This document shows positions 9,787-17,201 of a stretch of 17,893 bases of DNA, one piece after another. A program made the position numbers and the translations under genes. How positions within the stretch are numbered: the first letter of the stretch is position 1; every line of letters begins with the position of its first letter. The DNA comes from Escherichia phage vB_EcoS-716R1: the sequence record ON470621.1. One strand, 5' to 3'. Under the pieces are notes generated by a model, which saw nothing but the letters and a program-made list of their open reading frames with translations, had not been told where the DNA came from and did not search any database.

Positions 9787-11544
9787 TCACAGAATTAACA
9801 GGTCCTCATCAGGATCAAGCGTGGACAGAAAGTCATTCACGCCCCCGCCATTTACCAGAAAGCGGCTCATGGCCGTAAAAAGCGCAACAGGGCCGTCGAT
9901 TTTGGCTTCAGGCGTGGATTTATTCGGGAAGATGTTGTCGTTTTTGTCCGGTTTTACCGTAACGTTAGACATCATCCAGTTCATGACCGGATGATTGCTG
10001 TGATGGAAACGCCCGGCATAAACCAGTGATTCCGTTTCCTTCATGGCCTCTGACAGATTGCGGACCGTCTGCGGAACCTCCACCAGCGGTATCCCTTCTT
10101 CAGCCAGTGCCAGGCTGAACTGCATTGCGCTCCACGGGTCAAATCCCAGTTCCCTGAGGTTTTCACCGCCAATCCATTCCAGTAAGTCACTTTTTATCTG
10201 AGCATGATCGATAACATCACCATCCGTCAGGATGAGCTTATCCATCTCCGCCCACTTCCGGTAAAGTTCTGCCTGCTGCCGCGAGCATCGCTCCAGCCGT
10301 CCTTCCGGAAGCCAGAATTTAAAATCAGCATGAACATGTCCGTTATCGGTTCGCCAGAGTTTTGCCGCCGCACAGATATCAATCTTATGAGCAAGGTCGA
10401 CGCCGACCCACATGGGATATGTTTTCAGCTCATGTTGTGGAGCAATGTATTCGCACTTCTCCCACTTAATCATATCCATCCAGGCAGATTCGGCAGTGAC
10501 CCACACATTCATGTGTTTGGTAAAAAAATTCACCCGCGCAGAGACCTGCTCCTTCGCTTTTTTCGCCAGACGACGCAGATCATCCCAGCGTTTACAGATG
10601 CCCAGGCCAGGATTCGCTTTCTGCCAGACCGTTTCATCAAACGGATCATCTCCCTCATCGAGCGTGTAAATGATCGCAAAGTAGGAGTCGTCTTTTACCG
10701 CGCCCTCCACGTCGCTGTTATAGCCTCGCAATACCTTAATGGCGTAATCGCGCTGCTCGTAGCAAATCCCTTCCTTGTTAAAGCCAGCCGTGGTGATGCC
10801 AAATAACAGAGACTGCAGACGGGCACCGGTTGCCGTTTCCAGAACGTCCCACACGTCACGGGTTTTATGAGCATGCAGCTCATCAATAATGGCGCAGTGG
10901 ATGTTCAGACCGTCCAGGTTGTTTGCATCCGAGGAAAGCGGTTCAAATTTTGATGCGCTCTGCTCCTGGTAAATCGCCAGCTTGTTGAAATCAAACAACC
11001 GCCCGAGTGTCGACCGGGCTTTTCTGACCATATTTTTGGCGTCTTCAAACACAATTCTGGCCTGGTCACGCGTGGTTGCGGCTGAATACACCTCAGCCCC
11101 GCCTTCACCATCTGCCCCCGTCATATACAGACCGATACCCGATGACAGGGTTGATTTTGCGTTTTTACGGGCAACTTCGTTGTATGCTGTCCGGAACCGG
11201 CGCACCATCACCGGGCGTCCACTGCCATCGCTGCGCATGACAACTTCCCCGGTTTCTTCATTCACCAGCGGAATGACAAAACCAAAAATATTAATGAGGA
11301 TAAACACATGCCAGTCCATCAACTCAATGGGCTGACCTGCCAGCGCCCCTTTCACATGGGGTACAAATTTGTAGAAATTAAGGATGTGCTGTGCACGGGG
11401 TTCACTGAAATAAATCCCCCGCTCTTCGCCGTACTTCAGATCATCAAGAAAACGCTGGCAGGCCAGACGGACAAATTCGCCAGCAACAATTTCTCCTGCA
11501 ACAACACGTTCGGCGTAGCGGATCCCGTCAGCCACTTTTGCCAT
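9787..11544 (-). CDS. Terminase large subunit (Terminase_1 family)
   Basis: 585 aa with RRFRTAYNEVARKNAKST (ATPase P-loop region) and EVYSAATTRDQA motifs, and a C-terminal nuclease-like region. Start overlaps the small subunit stop. Confidence 0.9.
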   Translation of the reverse strand: MAKVADGIRYAERVVAGEIVAGEFVRLACQRFLDDLKYGEERGIYFSEPRAQHILNFYKFVPHVKGALAGQPIELMDWHVFILINIFGFVIPLVNEETGEVVMRSDGSGRPVMVRRFRTAYNEVARKNAKSTLSSGIGLYMTGADGEGGAEVYSAATTRDQARIVFEDAKNMVRKARSTLGRLFDFNKLAIYQEQSASKFEPLSSDANNLDGLNIHCAIIDELHAHKTRDVWDVLETATGARLQSLLFGITTAGFNKEGICYEQRDYAIKVLRGYNSDVEGAVKDDSYFAIIYTLDEGDDPFDETVWQKANPGLGICKRWDDLRRLAKKAKEQVSARVNFFTKHMNVWVTAESAWMDMIKWEKCEYIAPQHELKTYPMWVGVDLAHKIDICAAAKLWRTDNGHVHADFKFWLPEGRLERCSRQQAELYRKWAEMDKLILTDGDVIDHAQIKSDLLEWIGGENLRELGFDPWSAMQFSLALAEEGIPLVEVPQTVRNLSEAMKETESLVYAGRFHHSNHPVMNWMMSNVTVKPDKNDNIFPNKSTPEAKIDGPVALFTAMSRFLVNGGGVNDFLSTLDPDEDLLIL

Positions 11545-12026
11545 CAGTCTCTCGCTTTTAAAAGCTCTGCCAGCGGATCAACATCATCCGGTCCGGCGGT
11601 ATTTACTTTCGCCCGGCTTGCCGGTGACATACCAAACTCTGCAAGCATCGCCCGAATCCGCTTCCAGGCATCAGCCTTCATCGCAGCAGCCGGGTGTGCC
11701 TTGATCAGCACATCGCCATTCTGCGTTTCCGTGCGGTAGGTATAACCCTCAACATCGAGTATTTCGCAGTGATGCCGGTATTCGGTGTAGGCTTCCACCA
11801 GTAACTCGAGCGCACGTGCATCGAGCTGAGAAATGATCCCTTCCGCATTCAGCTCTTCCGCCATTCGCCTGAACCAGTACTTCCCCTGCGCCCCTAAATG
11901 TTGCGGAATTTTAGGGAGACCTTTTTCATCCTTTTTAGCGGTTTTTTTGGAGTCTTTAACTGGCCGCTTTGAGGGGTTACCTCGTATCAAATGCAGGCGT
12001 GGCGGGGTTTTCGGGGGTCCAGACAT
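11544..12026 (-). CDS. Terminase small subunit (P27 family)
   Basis: 160 aa with a basic N-terminus (PPKTPPRLHLIRGNPSKRP), placed directly upstream of and coupled to the large subunit. Confidence 0.8.
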   Translation of the reverse strand: MSGPPKTPPRLHLIRGNPSKRPVKDSKKTAKKDEKGLPKIPQHLGAQGKYWFRRMAEELNAEGIISQLDARALELLVEAYTEYRHHCEILDVEGYTYRTETQNGDVLIKAHPAAAMKADAWKRIRAMLAEFGMSPASRAKVNTAGPDDVDPLAELLKARD

Positions 12027-12173
12027 AATCGATTTTACCTATCAATCATTTAATCACATTCCAAAAAAAAGTTTTCGAACCTGCGGCGATGCGAGGAAAG
12101 GTCAGGCGGCGGTACTGAGCAGCCAGGGTTGCAGAGATTTGACCTGCCCCTCCCCTACAGATGGGAACTGTTA

Positions 12174-12524
12174 TCAATTGAGGCGTTCGCGCGCTGTTTT
12201 TGCTTTATGACAGGGCCAGCACAGACTCTGCAGGTTACTGTCTGCATCCGTGCCACCATGAGCTTTCGGAATGATGTGGTCCACAGTTCTGGCTTCAACG
12301 GCTCTCCCATTGCGCAGGCAGTTCTGACACAGATGATTATCACGCTTCAGTATGCGCGCACGTATGGCATCCCATTTCGAGCCATAGCCACGCTGGTGGC
12401 GGCTCAGTCCGCGTTGATGCTGTACCCATCCTTCGCCACGATGTTTATCGCAGTAACCAGAACTGTCTGTGGTTGTACCTGCACATCCACGCTTACGGCA
12501 GGCGCGTGGGATTCGTGGGGGCAT
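12174..12524 (-). CDS. HNH endonuclease
   Basis: Cys/His-rich with an HNH-like core (DHIIPKAHGGTDADSNLQSLCWPCHKAK). Start set at the ATG at 12524, which follows a GGAG; the track ORF begins further upstream at 12623. Confidence 0.8.
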   Translation of the reverse strand: MPPRIPRACRKRGCAGTTTDSSGYCDKHRGEGWVQHQRGLSRHQRGYGSKWDAIRARILKRDNHLCQNCLRNGRAVEARTVDHIIPKAHGGTDADSNLQSLCWPCHKAKTARERLN

Positions 12525-12644
12525 ATGTACTCCAATGAAGAAGCCACCGACATAGCCTCCTCCATTCATAGTGAAACTATTTTCATCTACCCAGTAATGA
12601 ATTCTTTGTAGAGTTGTGATCAATACAACTCACTAATGGAGAGG

Positions 12645-12681
12645 CTTGTCCAACACGTTGGACAAGTTTCCTGTTTGATTT
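12645..12681 (+). terminator. Perfect 10-bp inverted repeat followed by a T-rich run (terminator or operator)
   Basis: CTTGTCCAAC-AC-GTTGGACAAG followed on the plus strand by TTTCCTGTTTGATTT, in the divergent region between HNH and the plus-strand small ORF/bor unit. Confidence 0.3.
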
Positions 12682-12746
12682 ACTGGACACTATAGAAGGA
12701 CAGAATGCCTTCATCACTCGAATAACATCAATTAAGGAGGTTCAAC

Positions 12747-12869
12747 ATGTTTCATTCCACAAATCATCAGGCTGTAATTATGGCTGCATCAGCTTGTGCC
12801 ACAGACCTTTTCCGCTTCACTTTGAGCCTGATTCATTTCTACCTGACCGGCTCGCCTCTATCTTTTTAA
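12747..12869 (+). CDS. Small ORF (40 aa) with near-consensus Shine-Dalgarno
   Basis: TAAGGAGG, 6-nt spacer, then ATG. Encodes MFHSTNHQAVIMAASACATDLFRFTLSLIHFYLTGSPLSF. Same strand as and upstream of bor. Confidence 0.35.
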   Translation: MFHSTNHQAVIMAASACATDLFRFTLSLIHFYLTGSPLSF

Positions 12870-13049
12870 TCCCCGCTTTATCCAAATTGCATTGCCAGAA
12901 TGCCGACAACAGACTGACATTCAAATCCTGACTACCTCCAATAGGCTGAGCATCCACCTATATAGTTTTAATTTTCATCAATCCATTTAACTATCGTTTA
13001 ATTGTTGTCACATAGGATTCTGCCGTTTTTAACAATGCAGGATAATAAG

Positions 13050-13343
13050 ATGAAAAAAATGTTGTTTTCTGCCGCTCTGGCAATGCTTATTACAGGATGT
13101 GCTCAACAGACGTTTACTGTTGGAAACAAACCGACAGCAGTAACACCAAAGGAAACCATCACCCATCATTTCTTCGTTTCGGGAATTGGACAGGAGAAAA
13201 CTGTTGATGCAGCCAAAATTTGTGGCGGCGCAGAAAATGTTGTTAAAACAGAAACCCAGCAAACATTCGTAAATGGATTTCTCGGTTTTATTACTTTAGG
13301 CATTTATACTCCACTGGAAGCGCGTGTGTATTGCTCACAATAA
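13050..13343 (+). CDS. bor: Bor/Iss-family outer-membrane lipoprotein
   Basis: MKKMLFSAALAMLITGCAQQTFTV...ETITHHFFVSGIGQ...VDAAKICGGAENVVKTETQQTFVNG...IYTPLEARVYCSQ is a near-match to lambda Bor as I remember it, with an LITGC lipobox. Convergent with Rz, as in lambda. AGGA Shine-Dalgarno before the ATG. Confidence 0.9.
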   Translation: MKKMLFSAALAMLITGCAQQTFTVGNKPTAVTPKETITHHFFVSGIGQEKTVDAAKICGGAENVVKTETQQTFVNGFLGFITLGIYTPLEARVYCSQ

Positions 13344-13374
13344 TTGCATGAGTTGCCCATCGATATGGGCAGCT

Positions 13375-13836
13375 CTATCTGCACTGCTCATTAATATACT
13401 TCTGGGTTCCTTCCAGTTGTTTTTGCATTGTGATCAGCCTCTCTCTGAGGGTGAAATAATCCCGTTCAGCGGTGTCTGCCAGTCGGGGGCTGGTTGCATT
13501 ATCCACGCCGGAGGCGGTGGTGGCTTCACGCACTGACTGACAGACTGCTTTGATGTGCAACCGACGACGACCAGCGGCAACATCAGCGCGCAGAGTTTCA
13601 TTTTCAGCTTTCGCATTGGCTAATTCTCTCGAGTACTTTGCATCGAGTGCAGCAACATCACGCTGACGCTGCTGCATGTCAGCGATAGTGGCGATCGCCT
13701 GCTTCAGCTCACTGACTTTTTTATCACGCTGTTCTTTGTAGGCGATGGCGTTATCACGGTAATGATTGACCGCCCACGACAGGCAGACGATGATGCAGAT
13801 AACCAAAGCATAAATAATCGCGGCGACTCTGCTCAC
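13375..13836 (-). CDS. Rz: Spanin inner-membrane subunit Rz
   Basis: Very close to lambda Rz ([29 protein letters not shown]...[63 protein letters not shown]). Probable GTG start at 13836 overlapping the endolysin stop. Confidence 0.9.
13434..13616 (-). CDS. Rz1: Spanin outer-membrane lipoprotein Rz1, embedded in Rz in the +1 frame
   Basis: [59 protein letters not shown] closely matches lambda Rz1, including the VVGC lipobox and the penta-proline stretch. Confidence 0.85.
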
Positions 13837-14366
13837 TGCTCTATCCCCCAACAGGCTAATGCGCTTTCCTGGTCACGACGAATAACCTGTCCATAGCAGT
13901 TATTTGAACGTATGCGGCAATCGCGCCCACCATCTTTTATCCACCAGCGAATCGCCTCGCATGCGCCCTTACGATCACCGGCATTCAGCCGCTTATAAAA
14001 CGTCGACGGGAAACACTTACCGGGGCCAATGTTATAGGGACAGAATGACGCTATACCCGCTTTTTGTGGTTCGGTCAGTAGTACTTTAATATTGCGCTCC
14101 ACCCATGCCAGCGCCTTATCACGCTCAATGGCGTTGACCTGGTCGCATTTTTCCTTCGACAGTTTCATACCGGGAAAAACGGGTTTTCCATCCACCATCG
14201 TGGCACCCCGACAGATGGTCCAGATGCCGGACCCATCGCGGTATGCCGTTGTGTGGTTACCTTCTTTTTCATCCAGAAACTGGTCGAGAATATCAGGCGC
14301 GGGCGCACCGACGGCAATCAGTGCCAGAACGGCAGCCGACAGGCCGTATCTGATTTTTGCGTTCAT
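13833..14366 (-). CDS. SAR endolysin (T4-lysozyme-like, GH24)
   Basis: The N-terminus [18 protein letters not shown] is a weakly hydrophobic Gly/Ala-rich signal-anchor-release segment. It is followed by E...D...T catalytic spacing ([19 protein letters not shown]) of T4-type lysozymes. Confidence 0.85.
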
Positions 14367-15756: not shown

Positions 15757-16092
15757 ATGAAGTGGATTGTAATTGATACAGTTATCCAGCCATCATGCGG
15801 AATATCTTTTTCAGTCATATGGAGTAAAGTAAAATTAATAATCTGGTATCAATCGGATGCTTTCTTACCTCCTGAAAGTATATTTACACTGACTCACACA
15901 GGTATCATGCTCAATAACAAAGTGCTACCTGTAACCATTTACAACGTAGTACCATTCAATAAAACATTCTGGAATTTAATCAAAAACAGCCAGGAATGCC
16001 CTACAAATACAGATAACGTATTGAATGAATGCTTTAATAACCGTTGCATTCTGCAAATATGTCCTTATGGACTAAAACAACAAAGTCCATAA
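15757..16092 (+). CDS. Hypothetical protein (111 aa) in a low-GC island, opposite strand to the late operon
   Basis: AAGGAAG Shine-Dalgarno 5 nt before the ATG. A 111-codon open frame in very AT-rich DNA is unlikely by chance because stop codons are AT-rich. Cys-containing C-terminus ([16 protein letters not shown]); no recognisable family. Confidence 0.45.
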
Positions 16093-16109: not shown

Positions 16110-16320
16110 GACAAAATCAATATAAACAGCCCCTCCGGAGAGGGGCTGGAGAGTGGCGCTATGTGCCATTGCATGGTGCCGGGTGCCTCCCGGTGAATTC
16201 AGTACCAGCACCTGAATCCGCGATTATCCCATATACCTACTCGCTGATTACCCCTCCGCACAGGGGGATTCACCATGCGAAATTTTTTAACAAACTTCCC
16301 GCCGGCCAGACAATAATCGC
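16110..16320 (-). repeat. Copy 1 of a ~200-bp structured repeat unit (candidate sRNA gene with promoter-like box and intrinsic terminator)
   Basis: Shares with copy 2 the blocks GCATGGTGAATCCCCCT, ATTCAG...CTGAAT stem, ACCGGGAGGC.CC.GGCACCATGC, and an identical hairpin AGCCCCTCTCCGGAGGGGCT followed by a T-rich run (minus sense). Upstream conserved TTGTCTGG...TTTGTTAAAAA box. Confidence 0.6.
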
Positions 16321-16584
16321 CAGCCTGAATTATGAGCAACGTGGCATTTTACGGGAAAACTGTTTTCTGCAGTAAAAAGGCCCGCCGGAGCGAGCCTGGA
16401 AGGATAGCGGTCATGTGATGCCGGTTTCCCGGTAACTCAGCATCGGTATCTGAGTCAACGTTTTCTCTACTGGGTCATTTCCGATACGTTCCGCCTTCCG
16501 GCAGACTTTCATCACGTCAGAAAATATAGCACCCTGAGTAACAGGACAGTACTCAGAATTCAGGAAACTGTGACACATCCTGCA

Positions 16585-16790
16585 CAGAAAAGCCCCTCCG
16601 GAGAGGGGCTGAAGTATAGCCTAATTTCTGTCTGTCGCATGGTGCCAGGGGCCTCCCGGTAAATTCAGCCTGTCTACTGAATTTGCATGTTCTCTGGATC
16701 ATACACTTTGCCAGATGCCCCGCCGCTGAGGGGGATTCACCATGCGATGTAATTTTTAACAAATTCTCCGGCAGCCAGACAATCATCAAG
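16585..16790 (-). repeat. Copy 2 of the same structured repeat unit
   Basis: Same conserved blocks and the identical 20-nt hairpin as copy 1. The internal region diverges with indels, while the ATTCAG/CTGAAT stem is kept with a different loop. Confidence 0.6.
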
Positions 16791-17125: not shown

Positions 17126-17201
17126 TGGTGGCCCTTGCTGGATTTGAACCAGCGACCTGGCGATTATGAGTCGCTCGCTCTCACCACTGAGCTAAAGGGC
17201 C
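17126..17201 (-). tRNA. tRNA with CAU anticodon, most like the minor isoleucine tRNA (ileX/ileZ type)
   Basis: Minus sense GGCCCTTTAGCTCAGTGGTGAGAGCGAGCGACTCATAATCGCCAGGTCGCTGGTTCAAATCCAGCAAGGGCCACCA folds as a cloverleaf (7-bp acceptor GGCCCTT/AAGGGCC, GCTC/GAGC D-stem, GCTGG/CCAGC T-stem, encoded CCA). Overall similarity is to E. coli ileX rather than to a Met tRNA, judged from memory. Confidence 0.8.

Follow-up and report, generated by a model that had tools for sequence, protein, structure and literature searches.

Tandem T7-group and SP6-group promoter sequences upstream of a small open reading frame in Escherichia coli prophages: a candidate phage-triggered expression cassette

T7-like and SP6-like phages shut off host transcription within minutes, and the late transcripts of T7 (e.g., those from phi10) start with a stem-loop. 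Orphan T7-like promoters are known from phage-derived DNA of enterobacteria, the closest precedent being the work of Chen and Schneider in 2006: 12 clusters of 150-620 bp reportedly lie in islands of 4-13 kb, with two to five genes transcribed, and satellite-like behaviour is said to have been proposed for these islands. An engineered counterpart is the phage-triggered suicide cassette of Djordjevic and colleagues (1997), in which a promoter of Lactococcus phage phi31 reportedly drives LlaI. The locus described here lies in a stretch of 17,893 nucleotides from Escherichia phage vB_EcoS-716R1 (sequence record ON470621.1; hereafter the window, numbered from its first letter). Positions 12621-12869 of the window would form one plus-strand expression cassette, in which a perfect Shine-Dalgarno (SD) sequence and a 40-codon open reading frame (ORF40) stand behind a tandem pair of promoters (P1, of the T7 group, and P2, of the SP6 group) of the kind served by single-subunit phage polymerases. 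We put the probability that this is, as a whole, a cassette triggered by an infecting phage at about 0.5. An earlier, sequence-only reading of the window had listed a perfect palindrome followed by a T-rich tract, and a 40-codon open reading frame (ORF) behind a strong ribosome-binding site; the features that it listed are there, but it overlooked the two plus-strand phage-polymerase promoters that link the palindrome to the ORF. The first hint of these promoters came from an alignment of eight variants of the spacer, in which blocks resembling promoters of the single-subunit phage polymerases stood out.

The locus resembles the tandem promoter islands of Chen and Schneider in that two tandem T7-like promoters are found in phage-derived chromosomal DNA of enterobacteria in the absence of a polymerase gene. 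It differs from those islands, as they are reported, in that the promoter starts are only 57 nt apart, the surrounding DNA is a full-size prophage, and the promoters precede one 40-codon ORF. With the engineered suicide cassettes it shares the logic of a promoter, usable only by the invader, that drives a harmful product; those cassettes are man-made, whereas the present arrangement is natural and of dual specificity, and the harm done by its product is putative. What appears to be new, unless the locus is itself one of the 12 clusters, is the dual T7/SP6 specificity, the architecture of the leader, and the presence of a single small ORF under selection. A full-text literature search, whose coverage did not extend to the 2005 and 2006 papers of Chen and Schneider, returned no report of the cassette or of a natural defence driven by phage-polymerase promoters. 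The sit region of E. coli CFT073, which is linked to the 2006 paper, shows no homology to the cassette. At the end of a lambdoid prophage in the same strain, the sitA start codon is immediately preceded by a weak T7-like promoter core, GCTCACTATAGG (minus strand, 10160-10185 of its stretch; 6.7 bits with the Berlinvirus model introduced below) and may relate to those islands.

When up to three mismatches are allowed, the T7 core is matched nowhere in the window except at P1, and none of 200 shuffled sequences contained a match. Erwinia phage FE44 (Berlinvirus, KF700371) annotates CAATACAACTCACTAATGGGACA, upstream of its gene 4.3 (phi4.3), as a phage-specific promoter, and P1 is identical to this promoter at -17..+2; the P1 18-mer moreover recurs several times per genome in T7-like contigs of 38-40 kb, including Escherichia phage 285P, FE44 and Salmonella phage BSP161. 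P2 is likewise the only site in the window that matches the SP6 consensus ATTTAGGTGACACTATAGAAG at three or fewer mismatches (again 0 of 200 shuffles). It is identical at 23 of 23 positions to a promoter-motif site at 13244 of coliphage vB_EcoP_ACG-C91 (Vectrevirus, K1E-like), the record of which carries no promoter annotation, its 11 sites having been found by their shared motif, and the exact P2 sequence is repeated in SP6-like contigs of 43-45 kb. Scores were obtained with position weight matrices built from 11 sites per phage, with leave-one-out reference ranges. The FE44 matrix gives P1 27.9 bits, within the range of the FE44 promoters themselves (18.7-36.6 bits) and above the next best site of the window (10.9 bits; background -29 ± 9), while P2 reaches 36.5 bits with the ACG-C91 matrix (ACG-C91 sites, 21.7-37.0 bits; next best site of the window, 6.4 bits). 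In the complete genome of Shigella phage SfIV, the cassette is the only place with such promoters (32.7 and 23.5 bits, versus 13.9 and 9.9 bits for the next best sites) and stands on the strand opposite to all late genes.

The promoters are orphans and not part of an autographivirus, since a Pfam scan of six window ORFs revealed no RNA polymerase, and none is annotated among the 54 coding sequences (CDS) of the complete SfIV genome. E. coli is not known to make a polymerase of this kind. The T7-group promoters that carry a 5' stem-loop leader, such as FE44 phi4.3, have the same G start, hairpin at +1, TAAGGAG-type SD and ATG, so that the order of promoter, +1 hairpin, leader, TAAGGAG and ATG in the cassette is that of real Berlinvirus gene starts. 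The cassette differs from them in sitting in a temperate HK97-like/lambdoid prophage that has no cognate polymerase gene, in having a second promoter of another specificity downstream, and in driving a gene that has no homologue in those phages. P2, for its part, differs from SP6-group promoters in being an orphan, present as a single copy in a prophage and antisense to the late operon. Both promoters are likely to be functional for polymerases of the corresponding groups. Vector contamination was considered as a source of the promoter sequences and rejected: the two lie in tandem on the same strand with starts 57 nt apart, their alleles vary as natural sequences do, and complete genomes that contain them number in the hundreds. 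A scan of the GTDB species representatives with the P2 21-mer found no copies of the cassette and only two matches, both at contig ends in unrelated taxa. These are exact SP6-type 21-mers that end contigs of ~5 kb assigned to Methyloglobulus morosus (5040-5060) and to a Rhodobacteraceae bacterium (10-30), and they are probably cloning-vector contamination of those assemblies.

The variation among relatives bears on whether these promoters are maintained. Diversity (pi) is lowest in the leader with its SD (12701-12746; 0.029, the lowest of the spacer), in the C-terminal half of ORF40 (0.029) and in P1 (0.039), as compared with 0.10-0.17 in the flanks; the remaining segments are P2 (0.074), the upstream spacer (0.101), the N-terminal half of ORF40 (0.116), the stem arms of the palindrome (0.146) and the remnant of a neighbouring gene, lysC (0.165). 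The diversity of P2 comes mostly from its specificity triplet, which exists in two forms: the window-type allele has CTG, as in the Vectrevirus type ATTTACTGGACACTATAGAAG, and the SfIV-type allele ATTTAGGTGACACTTTAGAAGG, one position off the SP6 consensus, has GGT, the SP6 type, which occurs in promoters of phage SP6 itself. The most degenerate P2 allele, GACAGTATAGGAGG, is that of E. coli AH19E045, a strain in which the cassette is kept although the neighbouring HNH gene is truncated and the terminase is of another kind (DUF1441 plus a large subunit). It is quite doubtful that P1 and P2 are no more than inert leftovers from a past recombination with autographiviruses, kept only by the youth of the family, with the palindrome as the remnant of a phage 5' leader. 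The shallow and taxon-restricted family, a 21-nt identity between P1 and the FE44 phi4.3 promoter region, and the promoter mismatches of some alleles would all suit such an origin. Relics would not be expected, however, to comprise tandem promoters from two different phage subfamilies, to keep a stem by compensatory changes, to be 3-5 times less diverse than the flanking spacer (P1 and leader), or to fall into two P2 alleles that track two real promoter classes; nor does the similarity to FE44 or ACG-C91 extend beyond promoter and SD, the leader and ORF40 having no significant similarity to either phage.

The palindrome itself is as the sequence-only reading described it, with two fully complementary arms of 10 nt (12645-12654 and 12657-12666; 100%) separated by 2 nt. 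No other perfect inverted repeat in the window reaches 10 bp with a loop of 6 nt or less. Since 9% of mononucleotide-shuffled windows contain at least one such repeat (18 of 200; mean 0.11), the palindrome alone is only mildly unusual, and its significance comes from covariation in its relatives. The perfect repeat forms the inner ten pairs of a longer stem, which G.U, A-U and G-C pairs lengthen outwards, and an RNA that begins at G12638, the predicted start of P1, folds with its stem from +1 at -18.3 kcal/mol (z -3.28), the minus-strand RNA reaching -13.8 kcal/mol. Eleven variants of the stem occur among 104 loci. Inner pairs change jointly (C-G/A-U to U-A/C-G), one pair shows the series U-A, U.G, C-G, and the outer G.U becomes G-C in one lineage. 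Across the 11 variants, 94.4% of cells are paired on the plus strand versus 81.1% on the minus strand. Double (compensatory) changes are found at three pairs, and the covariation score was reached by none of 500 shuffles, a control that ignores relatedness and is for that reason supportive and not decisive, the strand asymmetry being independent of it. All six variants tested fold from +1 or +2 (-15 to -24 kcal/mol), and transcripts from five of the 11 FE44 promoters likewise have a hairpin laid out from +1 in this way. Pairing that is kept on the plus strand only, through compensatory and G.U changes, implies that a plus-strand RNA starting at or passing through this point matters. On balance the palindrome is probably the 5' stem-loop of the P1 transcript.

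Two other roles had been suggested for the palindrome from the letters alone. As an operator, it would bind a dimeric protein controlling HNH/terminase or ORF40, and both its perfect dyad symmetry and the symmetric changes in its two arms, if these came from co-evolution with such a protein, would be in keeping with this. The pairing, however, runs 4 bp past the DNA palindrome via G.U pairs and does so in plus-strand RNA only, the outer four stem pairs (G.U/A-U/G-C) being non-palindromic in DNA; one-sided U.G intermediates occur; no regulator gene lies nearby; and lambdoid late genes are driven by Q antitermination and not by local operators. The operator proposal is disfavoured and very improbable. 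The suggestion of a plus-strand terminator fared better in one respect, in that the element is indeed a plus-strand RNA structure, but it occupies +1 to +35 of a T7-type promoter and has nothing upstream on the plus strand that needs terminating. In an elaborated version of this explanation, the chief function of the stem-loop would be intrinsic termination or insulation against plus-strand transcription by host RNA polymerase, stopping stray antisense transcription from the HNH/terminase block before it reaches ORF40. A terminator scan does flag 12641-12670 on the plus strand (13 pairs, tail CTGTTTGATT), in line with a structure specific to plus-strand RNA. Only five of the 13 stem pairs are G-C, however; the tail CUGUUUGAUU is interrupted, and the U-run is not conserved in SfIV-type alleles (SfIV has CCTACTTGATTT). 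There is no plus-strand gene upstream for more than 12 kb, and the stem begins exactly at the +1 of P1, as at real T7-group promoters. The T-rich tract, which follows the palindrome as previously noted, contains a conserved TTGATTTA that is part of P2, and together with the stem it would make a weak intrinsic terminator at best. Termination or insulation as the main function is accordingly judged unlikely; as a second, weak role for host polymerase it is possible and compatible with the phage-triggered cassette.

Downstream of the promoters, the strong ribosome-binding site of the earlier description is borne out: TAAGGAGG, at 12733-12740, is separated by 6 nt from the ATG at 12747 and occurs nowhere else in the window, whichever strand is read. 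The small +1 hairpin of the P2 transcript is preserved by G.U-compatible alleles. The leader pattern ending in ATTAAGGAGG is exact in 108 of 111 loci, the other three having TAAGGAAG. Since these 111 loci were found by an independent scan anchored on the DNA of the ORF40 C-terminus, the conservation of the SD cannot be put down to the way in which loci were gathered, and the SD is under purifying selection. The ORF is also present as described, and its reading frame, the conservation of which had been put forward as a check, is kept in relatives, with all 24 distinct CDS (104 loci) comprising 40 codons and none containing a stop or an indel. The two halves of the ORF evolve differently. Variable sites at codon positions 1/2/3 number 9/10/4 in codons 2-19 and 2/0/8 in codons 20-40, and the ratio of nonsynonymous to synonymous differences (pN/pS), taken from sums over sequence pairs that are not phylogenetically independent, is 2.08 and 0.09, respectively. 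A feature that had escaped the sequence-only reading is that the 3' part of the ORF derives from DNA antisense to lysC, an Rz1-like gene. Third positions in ORF40 codons 20-40 coincide with second positions of lysC, whose overlapping frame shows nonsynonymous changes only, and the only other frame with a low pN/pS is an antisense frame that shares these third positions and is full of stops. Since neither frame could account for the pattern, the C-terminal segment, D, E or Y followed by LFRFTLSLIHFYLTGSPLSF, is under purifying selection at the protein level, and the N-terminal half, to judge from the same ratios, is relaxed or diversifying. ORF40 is likely to be a real gene.

The nature of the peptide is less clear-cut. 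In the AlphaFold2 model, residues 3-34 form one helix (mean predicted local distance difference test score, pLDDT, 82.9). Hydropathy over the best 19 residues is 1.40 for the version in the window and 0.90 for that of SfIV, which falls short of the value usual for transmembrane segments. A small membrane protein or toxin-like moron had been proposed; a moron or toxin-like role is compatible with these properties, but a membrane location is poorly supported at such sub-threshold hydropathy. Like the small toxic peptides of prophages and type I systems, ORF40 has 40 residues, is partly hydrophobic, is predicted to form a single helix and follows a very strong SD. It differs from type I toxin-antitoxin pairs in its sub-threshold hydropathy and in that no sigma-70-like promoter, Rfam match or family match was found for it; the antisense strand is the lysC remnant and not a small RNA (sRNA) gene, and the locus does not qualify as type I. 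The scan for sigma-70 promoters, run over 12000-13500, returned none on either strand but is a weak negative, as it also misses the bor promoter that must lie there; the Rfam search of the whole window at gathering threshold returned nothing in the cassette region and only two STnc100 copies and a tRNA elsewhere.

These results also bear on a more conventional account, according to which ORF40 is an ordinary moron or type-I-toxin-like protein, expressed by host polymerase in the lysogen or during the prophage lytic cycle, with the promoter matches irrelevant. Its strong and conserved SD, the purifying selection on its C-terminal half, and its position between lysis and packaging modules, where morons such as bor sit, are what such an account would predict. 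On the other side, the scan just described found no sigma-70-like promoter, neither an antisense sRNA nor an Rfam family turned up, the ORF is absent from the RefSeq annotation, and two unique consensus-grade promoters, upstream and in the right orientation, would be left unexplained. An ordinary moron is therefore rather unlikely. Table 1 gives the coordinates of the cassette and of its neighbours.

Table 1. Positions in the window of the elements of the candidate cassette and of neighbouring genes
Feature	Position	Strand	Remarks
P1, orphan T7-group (Berlinvirus-type) promoter, -17..+6, CAATACAACTCACTAATGGAGAG	12621-12643	plus	Predicted +1 = G12638
5' stem-loop of P1 transcript (probable)	12638-12672	plus	Stem 12641-12653 with 12658-12670; G12638/G12639 with C12671/C12672
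T-rich tract TTTCCTGTTTGATTT	12667-12681	plus	Overlaps 3' end of stem and upstream end of P2
P2, orphan SP6-group (Vectrevirus/K1E-type) promoter, ATTTACTGGACACTATAGAAGGA	12678-12700	plus	Predicted +1 = G12695
Leader of P2 transcript, 52 nt	12695-12746	plus	5-bp +1 hairpin GAAGG..CCUUC (12695-12712); SD TAAGGAGGT (12733-12741)
ORF40, 40 aa, MFHSTNHQAVIMAASACATDLFRFTLSLIHFYLTGSPLSF	12747-12869	plus	Variable N-terminal half; invariant C-terminal LFRFTLSLIHFYLTGSPLSF
lysC (Rz1-like o-spanin) 3' end remnant	12817-12957	minus	Antisense to 3' end of ORF40
iss/bor lipoprotein gene	13051-13343	plus	RefSeq annotation of identical E. coli locus
HNH endonuclease gene	12174-12524	minus	RefSeq annotation of identical locus; Pfam HNH E = 1.9e-16
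Small terminase gene (terS), P27-family	11544-12026	minus	
Large terminase gene (terL)	9787-11544	minus	
Holin, endolysin, Rz/Rz1 genes	~15105-13375	minus	

The window belongs to an HK97-like/lambdoid prophage of E. coli, and the divergent setting noted earlier, between HNH/terminase on one side and bor on the other, agrees with the RefSeq annotation of an identical E. coli locus. The HNH gene, which bounds the cassette with its start at 12524, is the first of an HNH-terS-terL packaging block, and the portal, capsid and tape-measure genes are also on the minus strand, while iss/bor lies downstream of P1, P2 and ORF40 in the same orientation as these. The spacer from HNH to iss (526 bp) is a mosaic: 12935-13060 is 100% identical to the bor upstream region of lambda and its relatives, and 12560-12936 is 85% identical to SfIV, in which it lies between the o-spanin and HNH genes. 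Some E. coli prophages keep an older arrangement (holin, GH24 endolysin, DUF2570 i-spanin, lysC, a spacer of ~290 nt, HNH, terS and terL), and an intact lysC is annotated at the homologous place in RM10466, CFSAN061762, MS 69-1 and SfIV. The mosaic junction falls inside lysC, near 12935/12936, and the remnant is a clean case of a mosaic joint within a gene. From these comparisons, an SfIV-type lysis module was replaced by a lambda-type lysis and bor module in the lineage of the window, and the spacer survived. RefSeq annotates nothing in the spacer, and one phage record has the 40-codon ORF as a hypothetical protein; the segment 12525-12935 is matched in 750 of 5426 complete E. coli genomes (~14%). 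The prophage of MS 69-1, and only this one, has an additional annotated ORF of ~64 codons (hypothetical protein; 1203-1397 of its stretch) between the cassette and HNH, which indicates that the spacer tolerates insertions.

Several other features of this region were considered. An N-terminal extension of HNH, through a TTG-initiated ORF reaching 12623, was rejected, its frame being broken by a 1-nt deletion in SfIV-type alleles. A cos site upstream of HNH was also rejected: the linear SfIV genome begins 67 bp before terS and ends 58 bp past its HNH stop, which puts cos between HNH and terS, and in the window the site is probably within the 147 bp that separate the end of HNH from the beginning of terS (12027-12173). 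A minus-strand ORF of 44 aa (12583-12717) spans the palindrome and is open in SfIV too, with many residues differing between the window and SfIV. An imperfect 14-nt inverted repeat (12556-12569 with 12727-12740; 79% complementary) pairs the complement of the ORF40 SD (which reads CCUCC in late mRNA from the minus strand) with a run of GGAGGAGG that shortly precedes the start of HNH, and may be a long-range structure in the 5' untranslated region of HNH.

Elsewhere in the window, two tandem copies of STnc100, an Rfam sRNA family, lie on the minus strand (16118-16306 and 16582-16775; 132.5 and 138 bits) upstream of the holin/lysis cassette, roughly where the leader of the lambdoid late promoter is expected. 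Upstream of these copies is a prophage-borne tRNA-Met gene (anticodon CAT; 17126-17201, minus strand). A plus-strand ORF of 111 aa (15757-16092), for which the identical E. coli locus has the annotation IraM (anti-adapter protein) and Pfam gives no match, is a moron between the lysis cassette and the STnc100 copies. Embedded in Rz (13375-13851) is a minus-strand ORF of 60 aa (13434-13616) with a lipoprotein-like signal at its start; this is the Rz1 o-spanin of the lambda-type module, which has no separate annotation in the RefSeq locus.

Taken as a phage-triggered cassette, the locus would work as follows. With no detectable sigma-70 promoter, the cassette would be silent in the lysogen, as expected where the prophage does not encode the cognate polymerase and E. 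coli is not known to make it. The polymerase of an infecting Berlinvirus-like or SP6/K1E-like phage would fire it; the transcript from G12638 would fold at once into a stem-loop of 13-15 bp, the one from G12695 would begin with its small hairpin and 52-nt leader, and both would carry the perfect SD and ORF40. The peptide would then be made in bulk, and its most likely effect would be early death of the cell or a block to the invader, a form of abortive infection or exclusion that would protect the clonemates of the lysogen. Transcription by invader polymerases, synthesis of the peptide and its action are what we infer from sequence comparison, and the anti-phage role is put forward tentatively, at somewhat less than even odds. 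Host shut-off by T7-like and SP6-like phages defeats defences that need new transcription by host polymerase; a gene driven by the invader's own polymerase would escape it, and would need no sensor protein. A natural 'promoter trap' can be imagined on this basis, in which consensus promoters of two unrelated virulent groups (Berlinviruses and Vectreviruses) would make the invader's polymerase transcribe a lethal or inhibitory peptide during host shut-off, with P2 alleles retargeted between promoter classes and the N-terminus of the peptide diversifying in an arms race; this fuller picture is speculative, with perhaps one chance in three of being right.

A number of observations weigh against a phage-triggered cassette. 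Apart from the weakness of the sigma-70 negative and the relatedness that the covariation control ignores, positions expected to matter vary in both promoters: P1 alleles with -6 A>G exist, and one P2 allele has -5 C>G plus +3 G, although alleles with promoter substitutions still score 23-29 bits. The P1 of the window has A at -11 and deviates at +3..+6, and T7 polymerase itself may be unable to use it. The family is shallow (at most ~15% divergence) and confined to prophages of E. coli and Shigella, so that its conservation partly reflects recency. The N-terminal half of ORF40 shows no purifying selection; homologues of the peptide occur in the same element only, none of them of known function, there is no match in Pfam, PHROG or PADLOC, and the peptide does not have a convincing transmembrane segment. 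Finally, P1 and P2 originally faced the lysis cassette in antisense direction, as the ancestral gene order shows, which may hint at a purpose at the RNA level.

Action through RNA or DNA could take the form of massive antisense RNA over the prophage lysis genes, or of an invader that primes replication or packaging of the prophage DNA, a satellite-like hijack comparable to the promoter-based replication origin of T7. The ancestral promoters do read antisense into the lysC, i-spanin, endolysin and holin genes. In the mosaic of the window, transcription from P1 and P2 would instead run sense into iss/bor, and with these two orientations an RNA-level role stays a candidate. The protein-level selection on ORF40 and its conserved, perfect SD nevertheless suggest that the product is translated; neither a packaging signal nor an AT-rich tract resembling an origin was identified, and T7-like phages degrade host DNA. 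An RNA- or DNA-level mode of action is for these reasons very improbable.

If the phage-triggered cassette is what it seems, promoter mimicry would be a very compact trigger principle for anti-phage action, as opposed to the sensing of proteins or nucleic acids. It would also explain why an unannotated spacer of 250 bp is kept in ~14% of complete E. coli genomes. The finding would be relevant where extraintestinal E. coli is to be treated with K1E/K1-5-like or T7-like therapeutic phages, and would provide natural, orthogonal and infection-inducible expression parts. In prophages with the mosaic of the window, the expression of iss/bor, a serum-resistance gene, could shift as a side effect during such infections.

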